Notes under the pieces: generated by a model
Told to the model about the DNA's origin: nothing
Databases searched by the model: none
What the model saw: the letters and a program-made list of their open reading frames with translations, nothing else
Assembly (NCBI GenBank): GCA_964373815.1
Contig: CAYJWI010000001.1
Coordinates: forward strand, 7,885-71,884
DNA length: 64,000 bases
Reading direction: 5' to 3'
Source: an uncultured archaeon
GTDB taxonomy: Archaea > Iainarchaeota > Iainarchaeia > Iainarchaeales > Iainarchaeaceae
Program-made: the position numbers and the translations under genes
Shown: one piece after another, positions 4,298 through 35,850 of the stretch
How positions within the stretch are numbered: the stretch's first letter is position 1
Layout of the letters: the number at the start of each line of letters is the position of its first letter

Positions 4298-4407
4298 CGG
4301 ACCCGGGGGGATTTGAACCCCCGACCACCTGCTAGCTTCCCTTTTCCGCTAACCTTTTTGAAAAAGGCTAGAAGGCAGGTGCTCTATCCAAGCTGAGCTA
4401 CGGATCC
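4298..4407 (-). tRNA. tRNA-Arg(UCU) with a 35-nt intron after position 37
   Basis: The minus strand reads GGATCCG-TA-GCTC..GAGC-A-CCTGC-CTTCTA[intron]A-GCAGG-TGGTC-GGGGG-TTCAAAT-CCCCC-CGGGTCC-G. All four stems pair. Length is 110 nt, 75 nt mature. Confidence 0.8.
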
Positions 4408-8728: not shown

Positions 8729-10299
8729 GTTTTATCATCTCCGTTGTCTATAACTTTTATCATACTCATCATTCCCGAACTGAGGTGTTCGGCGTTGTGG
8801 CAGTGTATCATCCAGTCTCCGGGGTTGGAGAAGTCAACCAAAAGGTCTACCGTGCTACCTTTTGGAATGAGGGCAGTGTCTTTCCACACGAGATTTTTAT
8901 TTGCCTGACCGTTCTCGTTTATCACAAGGAACCTGTTGCCATGAATATGTATTGGATGCTGCATCGGGTGGCTTGAAGCGCCAAGATTTTTGATGCGGAT
9001 CTTTTTCACGTCCCCTTTCTGTGCTGTCCTAAAGAAATCCATATTCTCTTCCTTTGTTTTTGCATCCCTAATAATCCACGTAATTTCCGAATTGGTGGTT
9101 ATTTCGTTTATTGGCCGCATTTCATCCTCCCACTCAATAGTATCCTCGGCATGGCCTGTCATACTGCCACTATGTCCCATGCGATCTAGCATCTTATCCA
9201 TTACTGGCCAGCGTATCAATAGCTCGTATTCAAAATCAGGTTCCTTGTCAAAATATGGGCTGAATTTTCCGATTTCTTCTTTTGCGGGCGTGTTTTCCTC
9301 AAGCAGTGCGTAATCTTCTTTTGTCTGTAAAGAAATTACAGATGGATTGGCATGAATCATGCCGATTTTTTCTTCCTCCGGTTTTCCACTGAGCATGAAA
9401 TAATCCCCAGCTTCTTCAAAAAAAACATCCACAATTGCCCTTTCAGACGGACCTATTGTGATGGAATTCGCAAAGAACGGCTCTGTGTAAAAACCCGCAT
9501 CAGAGCCAACCACCTTCAACTTTGTGTTGGTAATTCCAAACTTGAATGGCCTTGCGTTTGCTGCATTCAGCAAGTACAGCCTCAAAGTTTCTCCCGCGTT
9601 TGTATCCAACCTATACTCGGTTTTGCCGTTAACAAGAATTGTGTTTCCGAACCTGCCCATCACTGCAAAATTTGTCTCTTTTTCAGGAAACTCTGGCAAG
9701 CCATTCCCTTCAATAAGAATGTCATCCAAAACAATTACTTCTCCCCTAACCATATTATTAGTGCTATTTTTTGGCTCTACGAGTATGGTTCCGTAAAGCC
9801 CCAACTCTTGCTGCTTGTCTTCCCTCACATGAGGGTGGTACCAAAACAGACCAACATCAGGAAAGTCAAGCGTATACTCAAAAAAGTCTCCGGGCTTGAC
9901 TTCTGGTTGCGTGATGTCTGGGACACCGTCAAACCTGTTTTCCAGGCGCAAGCCATGCCAGTGAACTGTAGTTGGCTCCGGCAACTCGTTCTTGAAAATA
10001 ACTTTTATCTTAGAACTCTGTTCTACTTTGAGTATCGGGCCTGGCAATTGCCCATTATACGCATAACCTTCAAACTTTTTTCCGCCCACATTTTGCACCA
10101 CTTTAATAGCCGACAAGTGGAATGTATCGCCATTTTTAAGTGTGACCATCTTCTGCTCTTTGGCCATTGACAAAGAATCAAGTTCACTATTTGGCGGACC
10201 TTTGTTTGTCGGCAGTTGCAGGAAGAAAAAACCCGAAACAATCAAAACAACTGCAATTACAATAATTATCCAGTTACGCATTTCGCCACGATCCAACAT
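8725..10299 (-). CDS. multicopper oxidase
   Basis: Copper-binding motifs HWHGLR, HPMQHPIHIHG and HCHNAEHLSSGMM. N-terminal anchor helix. The start may be MRNWIII at 10281. Confidence 0.85.
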   Translation of the reverse strand: MLDRGEMRNWIIIVIAVVLIVSGFFFLQLPTNKGPPNSELDSLSMAKEQKMVTLKNGDTFHLSAIKVVQNVGGKKFEGYAYNGQLPGPILKVEQSSKIKVIFKNELPEPTTVHWHGLRLENRFDGVPDITQPEVKPGDFFEYTLDFPDVGLFWYHPHVREDKQQELGLYGTILVEPKNSTNNMVRGEVIVLDDILIEGNGLPEFPEKETNFAVMGRFGNTILVNGKTEYRLDTNAGETLRLYLLNAANARPFKFGITNTKLKVVGSDAGFYTEPFFANSITIGPSERAIVDVFFEEAGDYFMLSGKPEEEKIGMIHANPSVISLQTKEDYALLEENTPAKEEIGKFSPYFDKEPDFEYELLIRWPVMDKMLDRMGHSGSMTGHAEDTIEWEDEMRPINEITTNSEITWIIRDAKTKEENMDFFRTAQKGDVKKIRIKNLGASSHPMQHPIHIHGNRFLVINENGQANKNLVWKDTALIPKGSTVDLLVDFSNPGDWMIHCHNAEHLSSGMMSMIKVIDNGDDKT

Positions 10300-13500: not shown

Positions 13501-13968
13501 ATGGTCGCGGAAAATAAACTGGCATATTTTTTGCATAAGCACAAGTTTATGGGCGGATTGCCGCTTTTGGCTTTTTTTATTGTGTTATTAGGCACTCCGA
13601 CGGCACTTATCCCTAACCCGTTTATCCATTACATCAGGATGACGCCGGTTACCTGGCTTGATTATTTTTTCCTTCTCACGACAGGCATTCTCCTTTCAGC
13701 CAATGTGATTGTTTTCCTTGAGAAAAAAACGAAAAAAGAGGGCGCAATATTCGGGGGCGGCTTTTTGGGTTTTTTGGCGTTTGCCTGCCCAATATGTAAC
13801 ATCCTATTGGTCAGCCTGCTTGGCGCAACTTTTATTTTGGAATTCATCGAGCCCCTAAGGCCGTTATTTGGCATCGCGTCAATTGTGATTCTCTTGGCTA
13901 CACTTTATTTACAACTGAGGCAGCCGACCTGCAACGAATGCATGATTGGCGGTCAAAGCACACAATGA
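13501..13968 (+). CDS. 4-TM membrane protein with intramembrane CPxC motif (paralogue 2)
   Basis: 155-aa ORF. GAIFGGGFLGFLAFACPICNILLVSLLGA plus a C-terminal CNEC. Confidence 0.6.
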   Translation: MVAENKLAYFLHKHKFMGGLPLLAFFIVLLGTPTALIPNPFIHYIRMTPVTWLDYFFLLTTGILLSANVIVFLEKKTKKEGAIFGGGFLGFLAFACPICNILLVSLLGATFILEFIEPLRPLFGIASIVILLATLYLQLRQPTCNECMIGGQSTQ

Positions 13969-30347: not shown

Positions 30348-32735
30348 ATGAAAAAGCAATCCCTCCCAATACTTGCGTTAGCCCTTTTTTTCTCAATAGG
30401 TTTTGCCTACTCCGCGCAGCCTCAAAGCGGGCGAGTTTTGCCAGCAGATGGGCAGGGCGAGCCGGCAGGTGAACAAGGCGGGCCGGCAGATGGGCAAGGC
30501 TTGCCAGAAGGTTTCCCGAATTATGGCCAGGGCCAACCCGGCTCCCCGCCGCTTCCTTACAATGGCGGAAGTGAAGGCGGGTTCGACGGAGGGCCTGGCT
30601 TCAACGGCGGATTTGAAGGCGGCGGCAATGGCGGAATGGGGCCAGGCGGTTTTGATGGAGGGCTCAGGGGGAACTTCGATTTTGGTTTCGGGATTGGGGA
30701 GTCAAGCTTTGCCGACACAAAGCATGCGGGGGAGCAAAAAGTCGTTGAAAACATGACCGCGGTTTATGACTGGATTTCGCTAAACAGCACAAAGTTTGTC
30801 GAGGGGTGCAAGACCGACAGGGTTGCCCTTTCAGCGGAATTGGTCGGCATCATCACGCAGTCGCAGCAAGCCTCCTCCGTTTGCAAAAAGCTCGAACAGG
30901 AAGCCGGCGAGTGCAATGCAGATTCATTCTGCTCAAGGTTCAGCGCAGGCGAGATCCCTTTCCCGCCGGGGGTAAAGTCAGCCCTCAAAAAAGCGGGCAT
31001 TGACACTTCCACCATCACCGTTGATTCTTTCAATGAAGATTTTGCGCTGAAAATGTGCCTCTCCTTCAGCAAGCCTGAAATCGAAAAGCAAAAGCAGAAA
31101 ACCGAGAAGGCGAAGGTGAAGATAAAAGAGCAGCTCCCGTCGTTTAGGGAAAAATGCGCCAAGCTAAAAGAGTTCAGGGAGAAAGGTGAAGAGTATGAAT
31201 TCAGGCTCCCGGATTTCGGGGTACCGCAATCCCAAGGATACGGGCCGCAAGGCCAGGGGCCACCGTGCCAATCTTCACCGCCGAACTGCCCGGGAGGGGC
31301 TAGGTCCTCATGCACCCCCAATGGCTGGGTGTGCGGCCAGCCGGATTATCCACAGCAGCAAAACGATTACAGGCCGGAGCAGCAGTACCAGCGTGAAGGG
31401 ATGCCGCCGAATGATTACAGGCCGCCAGAGCAGCATTATACACAGCCGGCAGAAAACCGTTCAGATTCATCCCAGCCAGCACCAGAGCAAGCTCCAGCCC
31501 CCTCCCCAGAGCCTGCTCCCAGTGCGCCTGCCCCTTCAGGCGATTCAGGGACAGCCCAGACAGCCCACGGCGTAAACGCTAGGGTAAAACCAACAGGATT
31601 TGCAAGTGTTGAAGGGGGGAGCCAGCCACAAGGTTCGCCCGAACCTTCTCCGCAGCAAGGTTACAGAGCAGAGCCATATTCGGGTGGGGCGCCGCCGCAG
31701 GGTTATGGCGGCCAGCCATACCAGGGAGCACCACCACAGGGAGATTATGGCAGGCAGCAGTATCCGGGAGGCTCTGGGTCTCAGGGCTTCGGAAGGGATA
31801 ATGGTTATCCACAACAGCAGGGGTTTGGAGGAAATTTCCCGCAAAATTATGGAAGGCCACCTGAAAACTTCGGGTTCGGAGGTCCGCAAGGCTACGGCCC
31901 GCAAGGCCCACAAGGCCAGCAAGGTTATGGGCCACAAGGCCCGCAGGGTCAGCAGGGCTACGGTCCGCAGGGAGGCCCGGGCTTTGGCTTTGGTGGCCCA
32001 CAAGGGTATGGGGGGCCACAGGGTTATGGCCCACAAGGCCCGCAGGGAGGCCCTGGTGGGGGGCCACATGGAGGTTATGGCGGCGGCCCGGGCTCGCCCG
32101 AACAGCTATGCGAACTTTCAGATGATGAGCTTGTAGAGGAATTCACTTCGCAGTACAGCAATTTCGGCCCCAAAGAGGAAGACCTGGAGAAGATATGCAG
32201 GAAGGAATCCGGAAAAATCGTTGCCGACATGCAGAGGTTCAGGCTCGGGATTGCGGAGTGCAAGGCAAGTGTTGCCGTCCAGTGCGCCTCGAAGCAGGAA
32301 GCCGCAAAGAACTGCGCAAGCATTCAGGACAACCCGGAGGAGATAAGCAGGGTCATGGTGGAAAAGATGTGCAGGCGCTTCGGCGTTCCCGCTGCGGCAA
32401 AGGCTGACAATGAACTCTACAAGGTGGCAAGCAGGTGGTATGATTCAGACCCGGCACTCGCGGACCAGCTCGGCGACACCGCTGACAAGAGCACTGTAGA
32501 CAAGAAGAAGCTTGGCATAATGAGTTACCTGTTCGGTGACGGGGATTACGGCGCAAAGCTCAAGACAAGGGCCGCAGAGCTAAGGACAGTAATAGAGAAA
32601 CTCAAGGCCGCAGGAGTGAATGACGCGGAAACAGTTTCAGTGCTCGAATCGCAGGCGCAGTCATTCGATGCTGAAGGGGCAAAGTTCAGCAACTTCTTCG
32701 ACATCTCAAGGCTGGGCGGCCTGTTCGGCGGATAG
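30348..32735 (+). CDS. secreted protein with G/P/Q/Y-rich low-complexity regions and two Cys-containing helical domains
   Basis: 795-aa ORF with signal peptide MKKQSLPILALALFFSIGFAYSA. Tandem QGYGPQGPQGQ repeats lie at about 31880-32070. Structured Cys-bearing segments flank the repeats. Confidence 0.7.
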   Translation: MKKQSLPILALALFFSIGFAYSAQPQSGRVLPADGQGEPAGEQGGPADGQGLPEGFPNYGQGQPGSPPLPYNGGSEGGFDGGPGFNGGFEGGGNGGMGPGGFDGGLRGNFDFGFGIGESSFADTKHAGEQKVVENMTAVYDWISLNSTKFVEGCKTDRVALSAELVGIITQSQQASSVCKKLEQEAGECNADSFCSRFSAGEIPFPPGVKSALKKAGIDTSTITVDSFNEDFALKMCLSFSKPEIEKQKQKTEKAKVKIKEQLPSFREKCAKLKEFREKGEEYEFRLPDFGVPQSQGYGPQGQGPPCQSSPPNCPGGARSSCTPNGWVCGQPDYPQQQNDYRPEQQYQREGMPPNDYRPPEQHYTQPAENRSDSSQPAPEQAPAPSPEPAPSAPAPSGDSGTAQTAHGVNARVKPTGFASVEGGSQPQGSPEPSPQQGYRAEPYSGGAPPQGYGGQPYQGAPPQGDYGRQQYPGGSGSQGFGRDNGYPQQQGFGGNFPQNYGRPPENFGFGGPQGYGPQGPQGQQGYGPQGPQGQQGYGPQGGPGFGFGGPQGYGGPQGYGPQGPQGGPGGGPHGGYGGGPGSPEQLCELSDDELVEEFTSQYSNFGPKEEDLEKICRKESGKIVADMQRFRLGIAECKASVAVQCASKQEAAKNCASIQDNPEEISRVMVEKMCRRFGVPAAAKADNELYKVASRWYDSDPALADQLGDTADKSTVDKKKLGIMSYLFGDGDYGAKLKTRAAELRTVIEKLKAAGVNDAETVSVLESQAQSFDAEGAKFSNFFDISRLGGLFGG

Positions 32736-32767
32736 TGCCTAAGAATTAAGCTTCCAGAATGCCCGGC

Positions 32768-33055
32768 TTACCAATGTTTTGGCCCAAGGCCTGCGGCCCA
32801 TGAATTCCGGAAAATAAATGGCGCGGGGAATGAGCCACCAACCGTCTTTTTTATGCGCCCTATCGTGCTGTTTTTGGTTCGAAATACCCATAGGTTGTCC
32901 GGGTCGTTGTTGCCTTTGTCCCTGTCCATGTGGTGGACGACTTCGCCTCTTCTTAGTGGCCTGCTGAGCTTGTCTTCTGCGACCCATCTGTGTATTGGTG
33001 TTCCGCTGTCTGAGAATCTCCTGTACCCTTTCTTGTCATAATAGTAATCTGCCAT
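32768..33055 (-). CDS. HNH endonuclease
   Basis: 95-aa ORF with GEVVHHMDRDKGNNDPDNLWVF. The last ~18 codons lie beyond the putative element boundary. Confidence 0.7.
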   Translation of the reverse strand: MADYYYDKKGYRRFSDSGTPIHRWVAEDKLSRPLRRGEVVHHMDRDKGNNDPDNLWVFRTKNSTIGRIKKTVGGSFPAPFIFRNSWAAGLGPKHW

Positions 33056-33071
33056 TTTAAAACCTCCAAAT

Positions 33072-33539
33072 GTGATGGGTTTTCTAGGATTTTTATTTGA
33101 ATTGAGGGTTCGGTGCCGGTGCGGGATATGTATAAATATTGGGTTTGCTGATTGTTTTTTTATGGATGAATATTCAAAGATGAGGACGGCAGTGTTGCAA
33201 AGTGAACTAGAAAAACAACAGTTGCATCTTGGTATGATTTCGCTTAATTTTAATACAAATCAAGTTGGCACTCCTGCCGAGGCGGAGAGGTATGATAAGG
33301 GGATAATTCGCAGGATAAAAACGGTTTCCGGAAGGCTTGTTAGTATTCTTGAAGAATTGAGGGAAAGGAACCAGACAGTTAAAATTGCTAACCTTACACA
33401 TTGGCACCCGGTTGTACAGGTAACATTTGCAGCCAAATTAAGAGCCAGCAAGTACCCCCTAATTTCACAACTTGGACAAGGGGTCAAACCGATATTTACA
33501 AAGCACCCGAAGCTACCGCCGCATAACCGGAGATTTTAA
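33072..33539 (+). CDS. hypothetical protein
   Basis: 155-aa ORF, likely starting at the internal MDEYSKM. No motif recognised. Confidence 0.3.
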   Translation: MMGFLGFLFELRVRCRCGICINIGFADCFFMDEYSKMRTAVLQSELEKQQLHLGMISLNFNTNQVGTPAEAERYDKGIIRRIKTVSGRLVSILEELRERNQTVKIANLTHWHPVVQVTFAAKLRASKYPLISQLGQGVKPIFTKHPKLPPHNRRF

Positions 33540-33540
33540 A

Positions 33541-33786
33541 CTAATTTTTTTCTTGAAGCTTCTTCTCCAGTTCAATCATCATGCTAACCAGAATCACGTG
33601 CATGCTCGTAAGTTTGAGCGTGTCGAAGTGTTTGATTAACCGCGGGACAGAGAGACCGTTGAGCTTGTTGTATGTGTAGAACTTTTGAATGAGTTCTTTG
33701 TTCTCTTTGGACATTTCCAAAGTGGATTCGAGCCAGGCCAATCGCCTGGCCAAATCCCTTTCGTAGGAATGTATGTATTGTTTCAT
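33541..33786 (-). pseudogene. N-terminal fragment of a tyrosine-recombinase-type integrase
   Basis: 81-aa ORF. YERDLARRL..MSKENKELIQKFYTYNKLNGLSVPRLIKHFDTLK resembles the N-terminal SAM-like domain of archaeal integrases. No catalytic domain follows. It starts 63 nt from the tRNA 3' end. Confidence 0.45.
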
Positions 33787-33848
33787 GTTGAGTGCCCCCT
33801 ACTCAACCGTACTTTTTAAAAGGGCACCGACTTGAACTGTCGGTAGGA

Positions 33849-33932
33849 CGCGGGGAATGGGATTTGAACCCATGCTCCCGTGAAGGAACACGCTTTCCAG
33901 GCGTGCGCATTAGACCGCTCTGCCATCCCCGC
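33849..33932 (-). tRNA. tRNA-Ser(GGA), class II
   Basis: GCGGGGA-TG-GCA..TGC-G-CACGC-CTGGAAA-GCGTG, variable arm TTCCTTCACGGGAGC, ATGGG-TTCAAAT-CCCAT, TCCCCGC-G. 84 nt. Confidence 0.85.
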
Positions 33933-33990
33933 AACCTTTTTCTTTTCTTTTGGAAAGAAAAGAAAAACGTTGACGAAAAAGAAAAGAAAC
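33933..33990. repeat. tRNA-flanking polypyrimidine/polypurine element, copy 3
   Basis: Perfect 14-bp hairpin TTTTTCTTTTCTTT-TGG-AAAGAAAAGAAAAA (33937-33967), immediately followed by AAACGTTGACGAAAAAGAAAAGAAAC (33965-33990). Confidence 0.6.
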
Positions 33991-34270
33991 TTCTGCCAAC
34001 AAAACTCTTGCCAAAAAGGTATTGCATTTGGCTTGGTTTGAATGAAAAAGTGCCCGGTTAAGGTTAAAAATGTTGATTTGGAACGAAAAAGGCGGGAATT
34101 GCGGCAAATATGAAGAAGGTAAGCCAGGGATCTGCCCTCCTATGAGGAGTCAGTGAACCACTGTATGCAGTATGGCTTACCCCCTTAACTCCCAATACGC
34201 AATACCAATTACGACTTTAGTGTTTAAATATCTTCTCGTGGGGAAAATTTTTTTCGGCGGGCAGCGGAAA

Positions 34271-35476
34271 TTATTTTTTAAGGAAGTTTTCCTTCACGAA
34301 TTCCCCTATTTTGTCGAAAGCGCTGTCCAGTATTTCCTCAGGAGGCAGGAAAACTATCCTGAAATGGTGCGTCCCCTTCTTCTGCCCAAAACCTTCACCA
34401 TAAACCACAAGCACTCCCTTCTCCTTGAGCAGTTTTATGACGAATTCCCTGTCGGATTTTATCGGGAGCTCGATTTTCGGGTAGGCGTAGAATGCACCGC
34501 GAGGCTTTGCGCAGCTAAGGCCCCCTATTTCATTGAGCCTCTTGTATGCAAGGTCGCGCCTCCTCTGCAATTTAGGGATGAGTTCCTTGAAATGCTCCTG
34601 CGGCCCGTTTAGTGCTGCCTCGATAGCGAACTGCACCGGCGCCACGGTCGAAAGCCGCAGCCTCGAGAGCTTTTTTATCCCCTCGAAATAATCCTCCATA
34701 ACCCCGAGCGGGTCGTGCCTGTAAATCCAGCCTCCGCGGAATCCGGGGCACAAATAATTTTTCGAGATGCTTCCGAATGAAATCACAGGCACGTCCTTTG
34801 CGAGCGAGGCCATTGGCGTGAATTTTTCCCCATCGAAGAGGAGCTTGTCATAGGTTTCGTCCGCAAGCACCACGAGGTTGTTTGCACCGGCCACGTCGAT
34901 GACTTTCTTGAGGTTGTTTTTTGAGTAAACGGCCCCTGTTGGGTTGTTTGGGTTTATCACCACGACCGCTTTAGTTTTCTTGTCCACCTGCTCCTCGAGG
35001 TGCTCTATGTCCGGCTGCCATTCATTCTCTTCGTCTAAATAATATTTATTCGCCCCTGTTTCGAGGAACGCGAGCTCTCCTGTGAACATTGAGTAGCCGG
35101 GTGTTGGCACAAGGCAGTTCTCCCCACGGTTGAAGAGCGCCTGCATGGAATGTATTATCGCCTCGCTTCCGCCGACAAAAGTCATTACGTCATCCACGCC
35201 AACATTGGGCGCGCCCATCCTTTTCGCATAATCAGCGACCGCCTTCCTTGCCCCAAGCGTTCCGAGGGAATCGGTATAGCCTTCACTTTTGGCCTTGTTG
35301 TCCTCAATCGCCTTCCATATGTGCGGAGGCGTGCGGTAGTCGAAGACCATGGGGTCGCCGATGTTCAGGTAGAGCACTTTCTTTCCGCTCTTCTCCACTT
35401 CCTGTGCTATTGGGACAACGTCCCTTGTCGCGTGCCTTATTCCCATTGCGCGCTTTGCGGGGACTATTCTTTTCAT
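34271..35476 (-). CDS. class I/II pyridoxal-phosphate aminotransferase (alanine/aspartate aminotransferase-like)
   Basis: Start taken at MKRIVPAK. SFGSISKNYLCPGFRGGW contains the PLP lysine. NPNNPTG motif present. Confidence 0.85.
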   Translation of the reverse strand: MKRIVPAKRAMGIRHATRDVVPIAQEVEKSGKKVLYLNIGDPMVFDYRTPPHIWKAIEDNKAKSEGYTDSLGTLGARKAVADYAKRMGAPNVGVDDVMTFVGGSEAIIHSMQALFNRGENCLVPTPGYSMFTGELAFLETGANKYYLDEENEWQPDIEHLEEQVDKKTKAVVVINPNNPTGAVYSKNNLKKVIDVAGANNLVVLADETYDKLLFDGEKFTPMASLAKDVPVISFGSISKNYLCPGFRGGWIYRHDPLGVMEDYFEGIKKLSRLRLSTVAPVQFAIEAALNGPQEHFKELIPKLQRRRDLAYKRLNEIGGLSCAKPRGAFYAYPKIELPIKSDREFVIKLLKEKGVLVVYGEGFGQKKGTHHFRIVFLPPEEILDSAFDKIGEFVKENFLKK

Positions 35477-35544
35477 GGAATCAATCCAAAGAATAGGGAA
35501 TGGATAAGTTTTTATATTACGGCGCAATAATCTAGCGGATAAGC

Positions 35545-35850
35545 ATGTTCTCGAATTTGTTCCAGGCAAGGGGCGTTTCAGCGCAGCCTGAGATAAGCGG
35601 GCCGAAATGGATTGAGGCCGCGCATAGGAAGGAATCCGGGGGCCTTGGGCTGTTCAGATTCGGCAACAATGTGCTGGGCAAAACCCTCAAGTTCCGCGCT
35701 GTAACGCTTGTAACAACCCTTGGAATCACCTGGCTTCTCACGGGGAACCCGGTTACGAGCGTCGGGCTTACGGTCCTGCAGCAGAGCACAAACACCGCGG
35801 TGTATTACTTCTTTGAAAAAAACGAGCATAAAAAGTTTAATCCGAATTGA
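35545..35850 (+). CDS. DUF2061-like small membrane protein
   Basis: 101-aa ORF. RAVTLVTTLGITWLLTGNPVTSVGLTVLQQSTNTAVYYFFEK resembles the DUF2061 two-helix pattern. Confidence 0.45.
   Translation: MFSNLFQARGVSAQPEISGPKWIEAAHRKESGGLGLFRFGNNVLGKTLKFRAVTLVTTLGITWLLTGNPVTSVGLTVLQQSTNTAVYYFFEKNEHKKFNPN

Follow-up and report, generated by a model that had tools for sequence, protein, structure and literature searches.

In the 64-kb stretch of archaeal DNA analyzed here (the window), the segment 32822-33859 is located directly behind an intact transfer RNA gene, tRNA-Ser(GGA), and is bounded by two exact copies of an 11-nucleotide (nt) sequence, CGCGGGGAATG, both on the plus strand. The host of the window is an Iainarchaeum-like DPANN archaeon, with the neighboring aminotransferase (34271-35569) being 68-75% identical to proteins from metagenome-assembled genomes of Candidatus Iainarchaeum and uncultured archaea (DPANN). 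Seen from the tRNA, the interval is a mosaic of the proximal copy of the 11-mer (the core), a short arm followed by the truncated 5′ end of a tyrosine integrase gene, DNA without any match, an HNH endonuclease pseudogene, and the distal core copy (Table 1). ARAGORN placed the tRNA at 33846-33933 on the minus strand, with the anticodon GGA.

Table 1. Features of the segment behind tRNA-Ser(GGA); att, attachment site; ORF, open reading frame
Feature	Position	Strand	Evidence or remark
Presumed original tRNA 3′ trailer, CCATTTATTTTCC... in tRNA sense	32736..32821	-	Between core and stop of the 795-amino-acid gene
Distal core copy (presumed attR), exact 11-mer	32822..32832	-	At the border of DNA absent from relatives with the next gene
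HNH_3 endonuclease cassette, 287 nt, pseudogene	32837..33123	-	Pfam HNH_3, relatives, frameshift
Unmatched segment, 470 nt, A/T-rich, holds the orphan ORF	33124..33594		No homologue
Orphan ORF	33162-33539	+	No library match
Integrase stub, codons 1-64 of a tyrosine integrase of ~397 amino acids	33595..33786	-	BLASTP, tblastn, DNA alignment
Integrase-proximal arm, 62 nt	33787..33848	-	Near-identical to L056 1779-1841
Proximal core (attL), CATTCCCCGCG in tRNA sense	33849..33859	-	Positions 63-73 of tRNA-Ser(GGA)
tRNA-Ser(GGA), intact, intronless, no encoded CCA	33849..33932	-	Rfam RF00005, 60.7 bits, model positions 1-71

The two copies of the 11-mer and their correspondence to positions 63-73 of the tRNA, as claimed in an earlier note on this DNA, are exact at both coordinates. 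The core is made up of the T-stem bases 63-65, the 7-nt 3′ strand of the acceptor stem (66-72) and the discriminator G73, and the identity does not extend further, with the preceding base differing between the copies (c vs. t) in the window as well as in L002, a locus from a different Iainarchaeum species. As the identical block ends at the discriminator and excludes both the anticodon loop and the T-loop, it lies in the 3′-end (“asymmetric”) sublocation, and direct repeats of the tRNA's 3′ part flank the segment in the manner of type II archaeal elements, here with 11 nt. A third exact copy is not present in the window. For a pre-specified 11-mer, the chance of a copy in direct orientation within 1.5 kb is 3-7e-4 (Markov orders 0-3), in line with the former estimate of well under 1 percent; the empirical frequency among all 11-mers of the window is 2e-3. 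Across 64 kb, matches of arbitrary 11-mers are common, and the significance of the repeat therefore rests on its pre-specified position. In the downstream flanks of 29 metagenome loci sharing the same tRNA 3′ end, no second core copy was found (0/29), with most of these loci carrying the trailer CTTTTTTT directly after the tRNA. Similarly, the intron-containing third tRNA of the window (4298-4407) has no copy of its 3′ end.

The open reading frame of 81 amino acids (aa) at 33541-33786 on the minus strand had previously been described as an N-terminal integrase fragment starting 63 nt from the tRNA. It is indeed the N-terminus of an integrase, but only residues 1-64 belong to it, followed by unrelated sequence up to the stop at 33541, and its ATG is 62 nt from G73, the core thus lying outside of the integrase reading frame. 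Searches of the 81-aa sequence against Pfam, PHROGs and NCBIfam yielded nothing significant, the only match being XerD at E=0.027. By contrast to these libraries, a phmmer search against 1.84 billion representatives returned ten relatives beyond the sequence itself, all of them over residues 1 to ~64, of which two (P0003 and P0010) extend into Phage_int_SAM and Phage_integrase domains. BLASTP comparisons of the stub gave identities of 89% with P0020, 67% with P0045, and 56% with the full-length P0047 (E 4e-37 to 4e-20 over residues 1-64), each alignment ending at residue 64, and in tblastn searches with family members every match on the window ends at 33595. The earlier note had proposed to look in the rest of the genome for a full-length homologue and for further 11-nt duplications of tRNA 3′ ends; within the 64-kb window, neither a full-length homologue nor a further copy of this 11-mer was found, and no further integrase piece or catalytic domain was detected there either. 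The stub retains the N-terminal extension and the start of the SAM-like domain without any of the catalytic domain. Because only residues 1-64 are kept, it represents a fragment of a tyrosine recombinase family member and not a functional member.

Short N-terminal stubs of 71-173 aa also predominate among the nearest database relatives (P0002-P0011), some of them turning into unrelated sequence after ~60 residues, and an independent 79-aa N-terminal integrase stub was found behind another tRNA (L074:658-897). The recurrence of such stubs beside tRNAs is probably due to the lethality of deletions reaching the tRNA.

The arm between G73 and the integrase start contains a T-arm-like hairpin (ACCGAC-AGTTCAA-GTCGGT, 33826-33844) including CAGTTCAA, an A/T box CTTTTAAAAAG at 33812-33822, ACGGTTGAG at 33802-33810, and a G-rich, Shine-Dalgarno-like run. 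This layout is common to L058, L060, L061, L062, and L063, where the core is followed by a short hairpin region, an A/T box (TTTAAATA or CTTTTAAAAAG), (A/T)CGGTTGAG, a GGAGG or GGTGA run, and the ATG. The A/T box and the G-rich run may act as promoter and ribosome-binding site of the integrase, respectively. An inverted copy of the core within the arm was considered as well and discarded; it shows no covariation with the core in the arms of the window, L056, L058, and L060 and coincides with the Shine-Dalgarno-like GGAGG run.

Starting from one of the phmmer relatives, a further search revealed a large family of archaeal integrases of ~395-400 aa, many of them annotated as Diapherotrites or Micrarchaeota. 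Full-length relatives contain the catalytic R..K..HxxR..Y residues together with the H/W position, a C-terminal CxxC...CxxC zinc ribbon, and matches to Pfam PF00589 and PF13495. A single-protein scan of IMG/VR yielded no relatives of this family and a profile scan two distant ones (34-35% identity); therefore, nothing marks the integrase family as viral, and a viral origin is not supported by either of these scans.

The closest relative, P0020, adjoins tRNA-Ser(CGA) on the contigs L056 and L057. Both contigs share ~93% nt identity with the window, from the base after G73 through the 62-nt arm and 64 codons, and the DNA alignment of the window with L056 breaks abruptly at 33595. The cores of the two tRNAs differ at 2/11 positions (CATTCCCCGCG in tRNA-Ser(GGA) vs. 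CACTCTCCGCG in tRNA-Ser(CGA)). As tRNAs and cores differ while the arms are ~93% identical, closely related elements are located at the same sublocation of different tRNA-Ser isoacceptors. The tRNA-proximal junction at tRNA-Ser(GGA) is certainly a genuine element junction. A far-end attachment site (attR) was not found in L056 and L057, the contigs being too short and the integrase being interrupted: P0020 is cut after residue ~235 by an insertion sequence with a DDE_Tnp_1 transposase (L056:2698-3816; L057:1400-2461).

The genes for P0047 (L058) and P0045 (L060) adjoin tRNA-Ser(GCU). Overall, the clade is thus found behind tRNA-Ser(CGA), tRNA-Ser(GCU), and tRNA-Ser(GGA), with the junction after G73 and close relatives starting ~62 nt behind the tRNA, which supports the previous suggestion that one structural position is targeted across Ser isoacceptors. 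More distant family members are located at tRNA-Glu and other tRNAs. In L058 and L062, a full-length integrase lies directly behind the tRNA and is intact in the integrated state. Two loci with intact, more distant members also contain both repeats. In L061, the 14-nt sequence CCGTTAGGGGCATT is present at 10206 and 14575 (4.4 kb apart) and consists of positions 62-73 plus 2 nt of an intron-bearing tRNA-Glu(UUC), which was identified by reading the sequence. In L062, the 14-nt sequence TCCCTCCCGGGGCT is found at 9918 and 17582 (7.7 kb apart) and equals the last 14 nt of a tRNA(-like) sequence. In both loci the repeat is the extreme tRNA(-like) 3′ end, and the integrase begins 60-70 nt behind it.

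The DNA behind the tRNA is not conserved among relatives. In L001, the order is aminotransferase, tRNA-Ser(GGA), a few genes, Rpe, tRNA-Ser(UGA), variable DNA, and H+-PPase. Directly behind tRNA-Ser(GGA), L001 has a winged helix-turn-helix gene, L002 has an MNT/HEPN pair among others, and L054 has Dus. The syntenic regions of L001, L002, and L054 contain nothing equivalent to the HNH gene, the integrase stub, the orphan ORF, or the neighboring gene for a 795-aa protein. Together with the ~93% identity of arm and integrase 5′ end to L056 and L057, the absence of the interior genes from these relatives supports the claim of a decayed integrated element. An empty site for comparison, likewise proposed at that time, could not be aligned at the level of single bases, as the closest genomes are 68-75% identical (aminotransferase) and the gene order behind the tRNA varies. 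The element is unchanged in contigs of four metagenome runs; at most fragments of this stretch were present in another two, which belong to the study of X1.

The identical 11-mer is repeated in L002, at 13690 and 17569, the tRNA-Ser(GGA) ending at 13700. Here, the two copies enclose 3.9 kb of unrelated, integrase-free cargo, and the second lies directly ahead of the argH stop. This repeat lends independent support to the 11 nt as recombination core. The cargo (L002:13701-17568) comprises an MNT/HEPN-like pair, two unknown secreted-looking proteins, and an 84-aa N-terminal fragment of the carbamoyl-phosphate synthase small subunit, and the module directly adjoins argH-argF-argG.

As stated in the earlier note, the same 11-nt window is duplicated at the second tRNA-Ser gene of this region, tRNA-Ser(UGA). 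The equivalent 11-mer, CGCGGAGGACG (CGTCCTCCGCG in tRNA sense), occurs there three times (23715, 25635, and 28217), and the three copies bound two tandem modules, E1 and E2, which have both ends in common. The use of the equivalent 11 nt by the integrase-less E1 and E2 would be explained by the integrase clade described above, which targets this sublocation in other tRNA-Ser isoacceptors, too. The last 11 nt of the tRNA-Ser(GCU) in L058 are identical to the E1/E2 core. This identity, the relatives of the clade, the 14-nt repeats, and the 11-mer of L002 support the assumption of a shared recombinase type. The element at tRNA-Ser(GGA) had been said to share no similarity at its ends with E1 or E2. 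This is true as far as BLAST is concerned, which detected no similarity between them, but the motif CAGTTCRA is shared 9-10 nt beyond the core: it is present in the arm at tRNA-Ser(GGA) (33832-33839, inside the T-arm-like hairpin), in the proximal arms of E1 and E2 (28199 and 25617), and in the arm of L063. CAGTTCRA also occurs in inverted orientation at the far ends of E1 and E2, with a spacing of 14 nt to the distal core. Since the motif is common to the arm at tRNA-Ser(GGA) and the E1/E2 arms, it fits a common recombinase type. In the whole window, it occurs 14 times, vs. 4.3 ± 2.3 expected. Other copies on the plus strand are located just left of E2 (22692 and 23250), inside E2 (24311), and at 33568, the latter 20 nt beyond the integrase breakpoint and inverted relative to the proximal arm. 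These additional copies may have been left behind by other element ends that have decayed or by the event in which the integrase was truncated.

The presence of an HNH endonuclease gene in the interval was confirmed by a Pfam match to HNH_3 (PF13392) of 31.6 bits, the gathering cutoff being 24.8. Homologous proteins have 70-78 aa, with 74 aa for the family. The copy in the window contains a 1-nt deletion near 32882, where a related contig has an extra G, and is without the last codon and the stop. The deletion brings the conserved C-terminal QxHDRAHKKDGW of the family out of frame, the natural C-terminus NQKQHDRAHKKDGWW being encoded in another frame, and the annotated 95-aa HNH reading frame (32768-33055) is a frameshift read-through. 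The tail of this reading frame, which had been reported to cross the left repeat, is an artefact, because the gene is frameshifted and its stop is lost. As the frameshift precedes the last conserved His and the 3′ end is clipped, the copy is presumably inactive and is probably a family member by descent and not by function.

The HNH cassette shares 83.5% nt identity over 291 nt with L064-L067, where it is located beside a ribosomal-protein operon with no tRNA nearby; judging by these contexts, the cassette is separately mobile. An intact 74-aa HNH_3 gene with 81% aa identity to the pseudogene is found in L064 (4525-4817), L066, and L067, three contigs from the same samples as those of the window. 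There, the cassette (~290 nt) is flanked by two AAA_14/DUF4143 ATPase genes on one side and by the L12/L10/L1/L11 ribosomal-protein operon on the other. This intact gene may be a paralogue in the same genome or originate from a co-occurring relative. In its 74-aa gene, its cassette size of ~290 nt, and its unrelated contexts (L064-L067), the cassette resembles free-standing homing-endonuclease-like HNH_3 genes, from which the copy in the window differs in being frameshifted and 3′-clipped. The sequence TTCCCCGCG near the HNH gene of L068 was inspected as an att-like site and regarded as a chance occurrence, the reverse complement of this motif being also present within the HNH coding sequence there.

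Between the HNH pseudogene and the integrase stub, the 470-nt segment gave no blastn match in any fetched locus. The orphan ORF within it matches no Pfam, PHROG or NCBIfam entry, and a search among 5.8 billion protein clusters returned its own sequence only; it is probably not a gene. The GC content is 0.43 for 33001-34000, vs. 0.55 in the adjacent kilobase (32001-33000).

The distal 11-mer is located at the exact boundary where the alien DNA ends. The sequence that follows it, CCATTTATTTTCC, resembles the trailers with a C and a T-run directly after the same tRNA in unoccupied loci (CCTTATTTTC in L054 and CCATTCTTTTG in L027), which hints that 32736-32821 may be the displaced trailer of the tRNA and that the distal copy may represent attR. 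Directly beyond lies the gene of the 795-aa protein (30348-32735), a secreted, G/P/Q/Y-rich protein, which may be a lineage-specific acquisition at this hot spot.

All these observations make it likely that 32822-33859 is a decayed type II (non-partitioning) tyrosine-integrase element at the asymmetric 3′-end sublocation of tRNA-Ser(GGA). In this scenario, an element would have entered the 3′ end of the tRNA gene by site-specific recombination, with an attP site containing an 11-nt core identical to tRNA positions 63-73. The unoccupied attB site would have consisted of position 32821 joined to the tRNA via one core, the tRNA ending in ...GGGTTCAAATCCCATTCCCCGCGCCATTTATTTTCC. Strand exchange, presumably within the 11 identical nt, would have restored the tRNA to its full sequence (attL), with a second core ending up on the far side (attR), beside the displaced trailer. 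The integrase gene would then have been situated 62 nt behind the tRNA, in the same direction, and the arm would have supplied it with an A/T box and a Shine-Dalgarno-like run of its own. During later decay, everything beyond integrase codon 64 would have been lost or replaced, presumably leaving the interior as found now, with the unmatched segment and a separately mobile HNH cassette that was frameshifted and clipped at the distal core. Such an element would no longer be able to move by itself.

Several points weigh against this reading. Eleven bases are short, and a chance match is unlikely, though conceivable. Just inside the distal core lies the clipped 3′ end of the HNH pseudogene and no recognizable element arm, and the inverted CAGTTCRA found near the distal cores of E1 and E2 is missing here. 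Relatives lack the neighboring 795-aa gene as well, so that the original island may have extended beyond what the repeat implies. Moreover, the genomes compared include no relative of >95% average nucleotide identity with an unoccupied site, and no joint of 32821 and 33849, as expected for an empty or excised form, was found in six runs, in which assembler contigs hide rare variants.

Some of these points lead to a first alternative, in which the stub and attL are real but the match of the 11-mer at 32822 arose by chance, the actual far end having been deleted or being located elsewhere, e.g., beyond the 795-aa gene. The lack of an arm-like motif next to the HNH gene end, the absence of the 795-aa gene from L001, L002, and L054, and the frequency of arbitrary 11-mer matches in 64 kb are all compatible with it. 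However, the low expectation for a direct copy of this pre-specified 11-mer, its repetition in L002 and in none of the 29 control loci, and its position exactly at the boundary of the alien DNA, followed by the trailer-like C and T-run, make this alternative unlikely.

It appears even less probable that the segment still functions as a non-autonomous element of the cis-mobilisable type, which an integrase of this clade, present in full length elsewhere in the genome or on an element residing alongside, would excise and re-integrate in trans, a mode also proposed for E1 and E2. In favor of this are the two exact core copies, the good preservation of the proximal arm in comparison to L056, with CAGTTCRA at the E1/E2 offset, and the existence of integrase-less modules bounded by cores at tRNA-Ser(UGA) and in L002. 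On the other hand, the distal arm is replaced by the clipped HNH pseudogene, there is neither a second copy of the module nor an excised or empty form in the contigs of the six runs, and the 64 kb contain no full-length integrase. Finally, an SSV-type (“suicidal”, type I, partitioning) integration, with an attP-containing integrase being split and the 81-aa reading frame representing int(N), is superficially suggested by the many short N-terminal pieces (71-173 aa) among the database relatives but is effectively refuted, as the core lies 62 nt upstream of the ATG and not at codon 64, no core copy is present at the breakpoint 33595, the stub reads away from the core, no int(C) exists at the other end or anywhere in the window, and full-length family members are intact beside the tRNA when integrated.

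Some further observations concern the tRNA genes themselves. The copies of tRNA-Ser(GGA) in the window and in L054 are intronless, whereas those in L001-L003 contain an intron of ~120-130 nt after GGAA (L002:13519-13648; L001:10252-10370). This intron contains two copies of a polypyrimidine/polypurine hairpin module (CTTTTCTTTTC-loop-GAAAAGAAAAG, with CGTCAACGTTTTT before), and the module is also found directly upstream of tRNA genes. The region upstream of the tRNA in the window (33934-33990) aligns best with the 3′ part of the tRNA-Ser(GGA) intron of the relatives, and an intron with the same hairpin is present in the tRNA-Ser(GCU) of L060 (350-430). The long-intron tRNAs of these relatives were missed by both ARAGORN and Rfam. 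The third tRNA of the window, on the minus strand, was found by Rfam and missed by ARAGORN; it has the anticodon loop CTTCTAG, is probably Arg-UCU, and contains an intron of ~37 nt with a CCTTTTTCAAAAAGG hairpin.

In type II archaeal elements (pNOB8-type, lambda-like, non-partitioning), the whole integrase gene is kept on integration and is located next to the 3′ end of the tRNA. The decayed element at tRNA-Ser(GGA) resembles them in the R-K-HxxR-Y tyrosine recombinase (in its full-length relatives), the integrase beside the tRNA 3′ end, the bounding direct repeats of the tRNA end, and the decay in place. It differs in that its identity block is very short (11 nt; 14 nt in L061 and L062) and reaches no further than the last T-stem bases, the 3′ strand of the acceptor stem, and the discriminator. 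Further differences are the C-terminal zinc ribbon of the family, the DPANN host, and the mere 64 integrase codons left. Integrase subfamilies are described as moving from one tRNA identity to another without leaving their sublocation, be it the anticodon loop, the T-loop or the asymmetric 3′ end (Williams, 2002, as summarized in 10.1101/2020.11.02.365908). This rule is based mostly on bacteria. In agreement with it, one clade is found here at the G73-ending site of tRNA-Ser GGA, CGA, and GCU, with distant members at tRNA-Glu and others; the difference is that this is seen in DPANN archaea and that the isoacceptor switch occurs between elements which are ~93% identical. The pattern of the same sublocation at different tRNAs within an integrase subfamily is thus an established rule and already known.

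A second known system is that of cis-mobilisable elements (CIMEs), for which tandem accretion at tRNA genes is exemplified by ICESt1 and ICESt3. Like CIMEs, E1, E2, and the module of L002 are att-bounded, recombinase-less modules at the site of an integrase-bearing relative. The module at tRNA-Ser(GGA) differs from them, as it keeps an integrase stub and has lost its distal arm, and for this reason it looks like a dead remnant and not like a mobilisable satellite.

More speculatively, and with little probability in our view, this DPANN genome and its relatives could host a small trans-mobilisation network made up of the integrase clade, integrase-less modules, and self-acting stubs. The zinc-ribbon clade may then recognize a minimal site of 11-14 nt made up of the 3′ acceptor strand and the discriminator, perhaps assisted by the T-arm-like hairpin (CAGTTCRA). 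It would hop between tRNA-Ser isoacceptors with cores differing by 2-3 bases and would serve the integrase-less modules E1, E2, and the MNT/HEPN module of L002, perhaps also the one at tRNA-Ser(GGA). Stubs of ~64 aa with their own putative promoter-like box and Shine-Dalgarno-like run could be kept as competitors for the att site or as regulators.

Taken alone, the element at tRNA-Ser(GGA) is an ordinary fossil of a tRNA-integrating element. For annotation, it implies that the integrase fragment and the HNH gene should be flagged as pseudogenes, the latter being mis-readable as a 95-aa protein, and the orphan ORF as a probable non-gene. Its modest value lies in a well-anchored DPANN case of one integrase clade using an 11-14-nt site at the extreme tRNA 3′ end and switching between tRNA-Ser isoacceptors. 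With this clade, the integrase-less modules E1 and E2 gain a concrete candidate recombinase type, and both tRNA-Ser genes of this reduced genome emerge as hot spots of gene gain.

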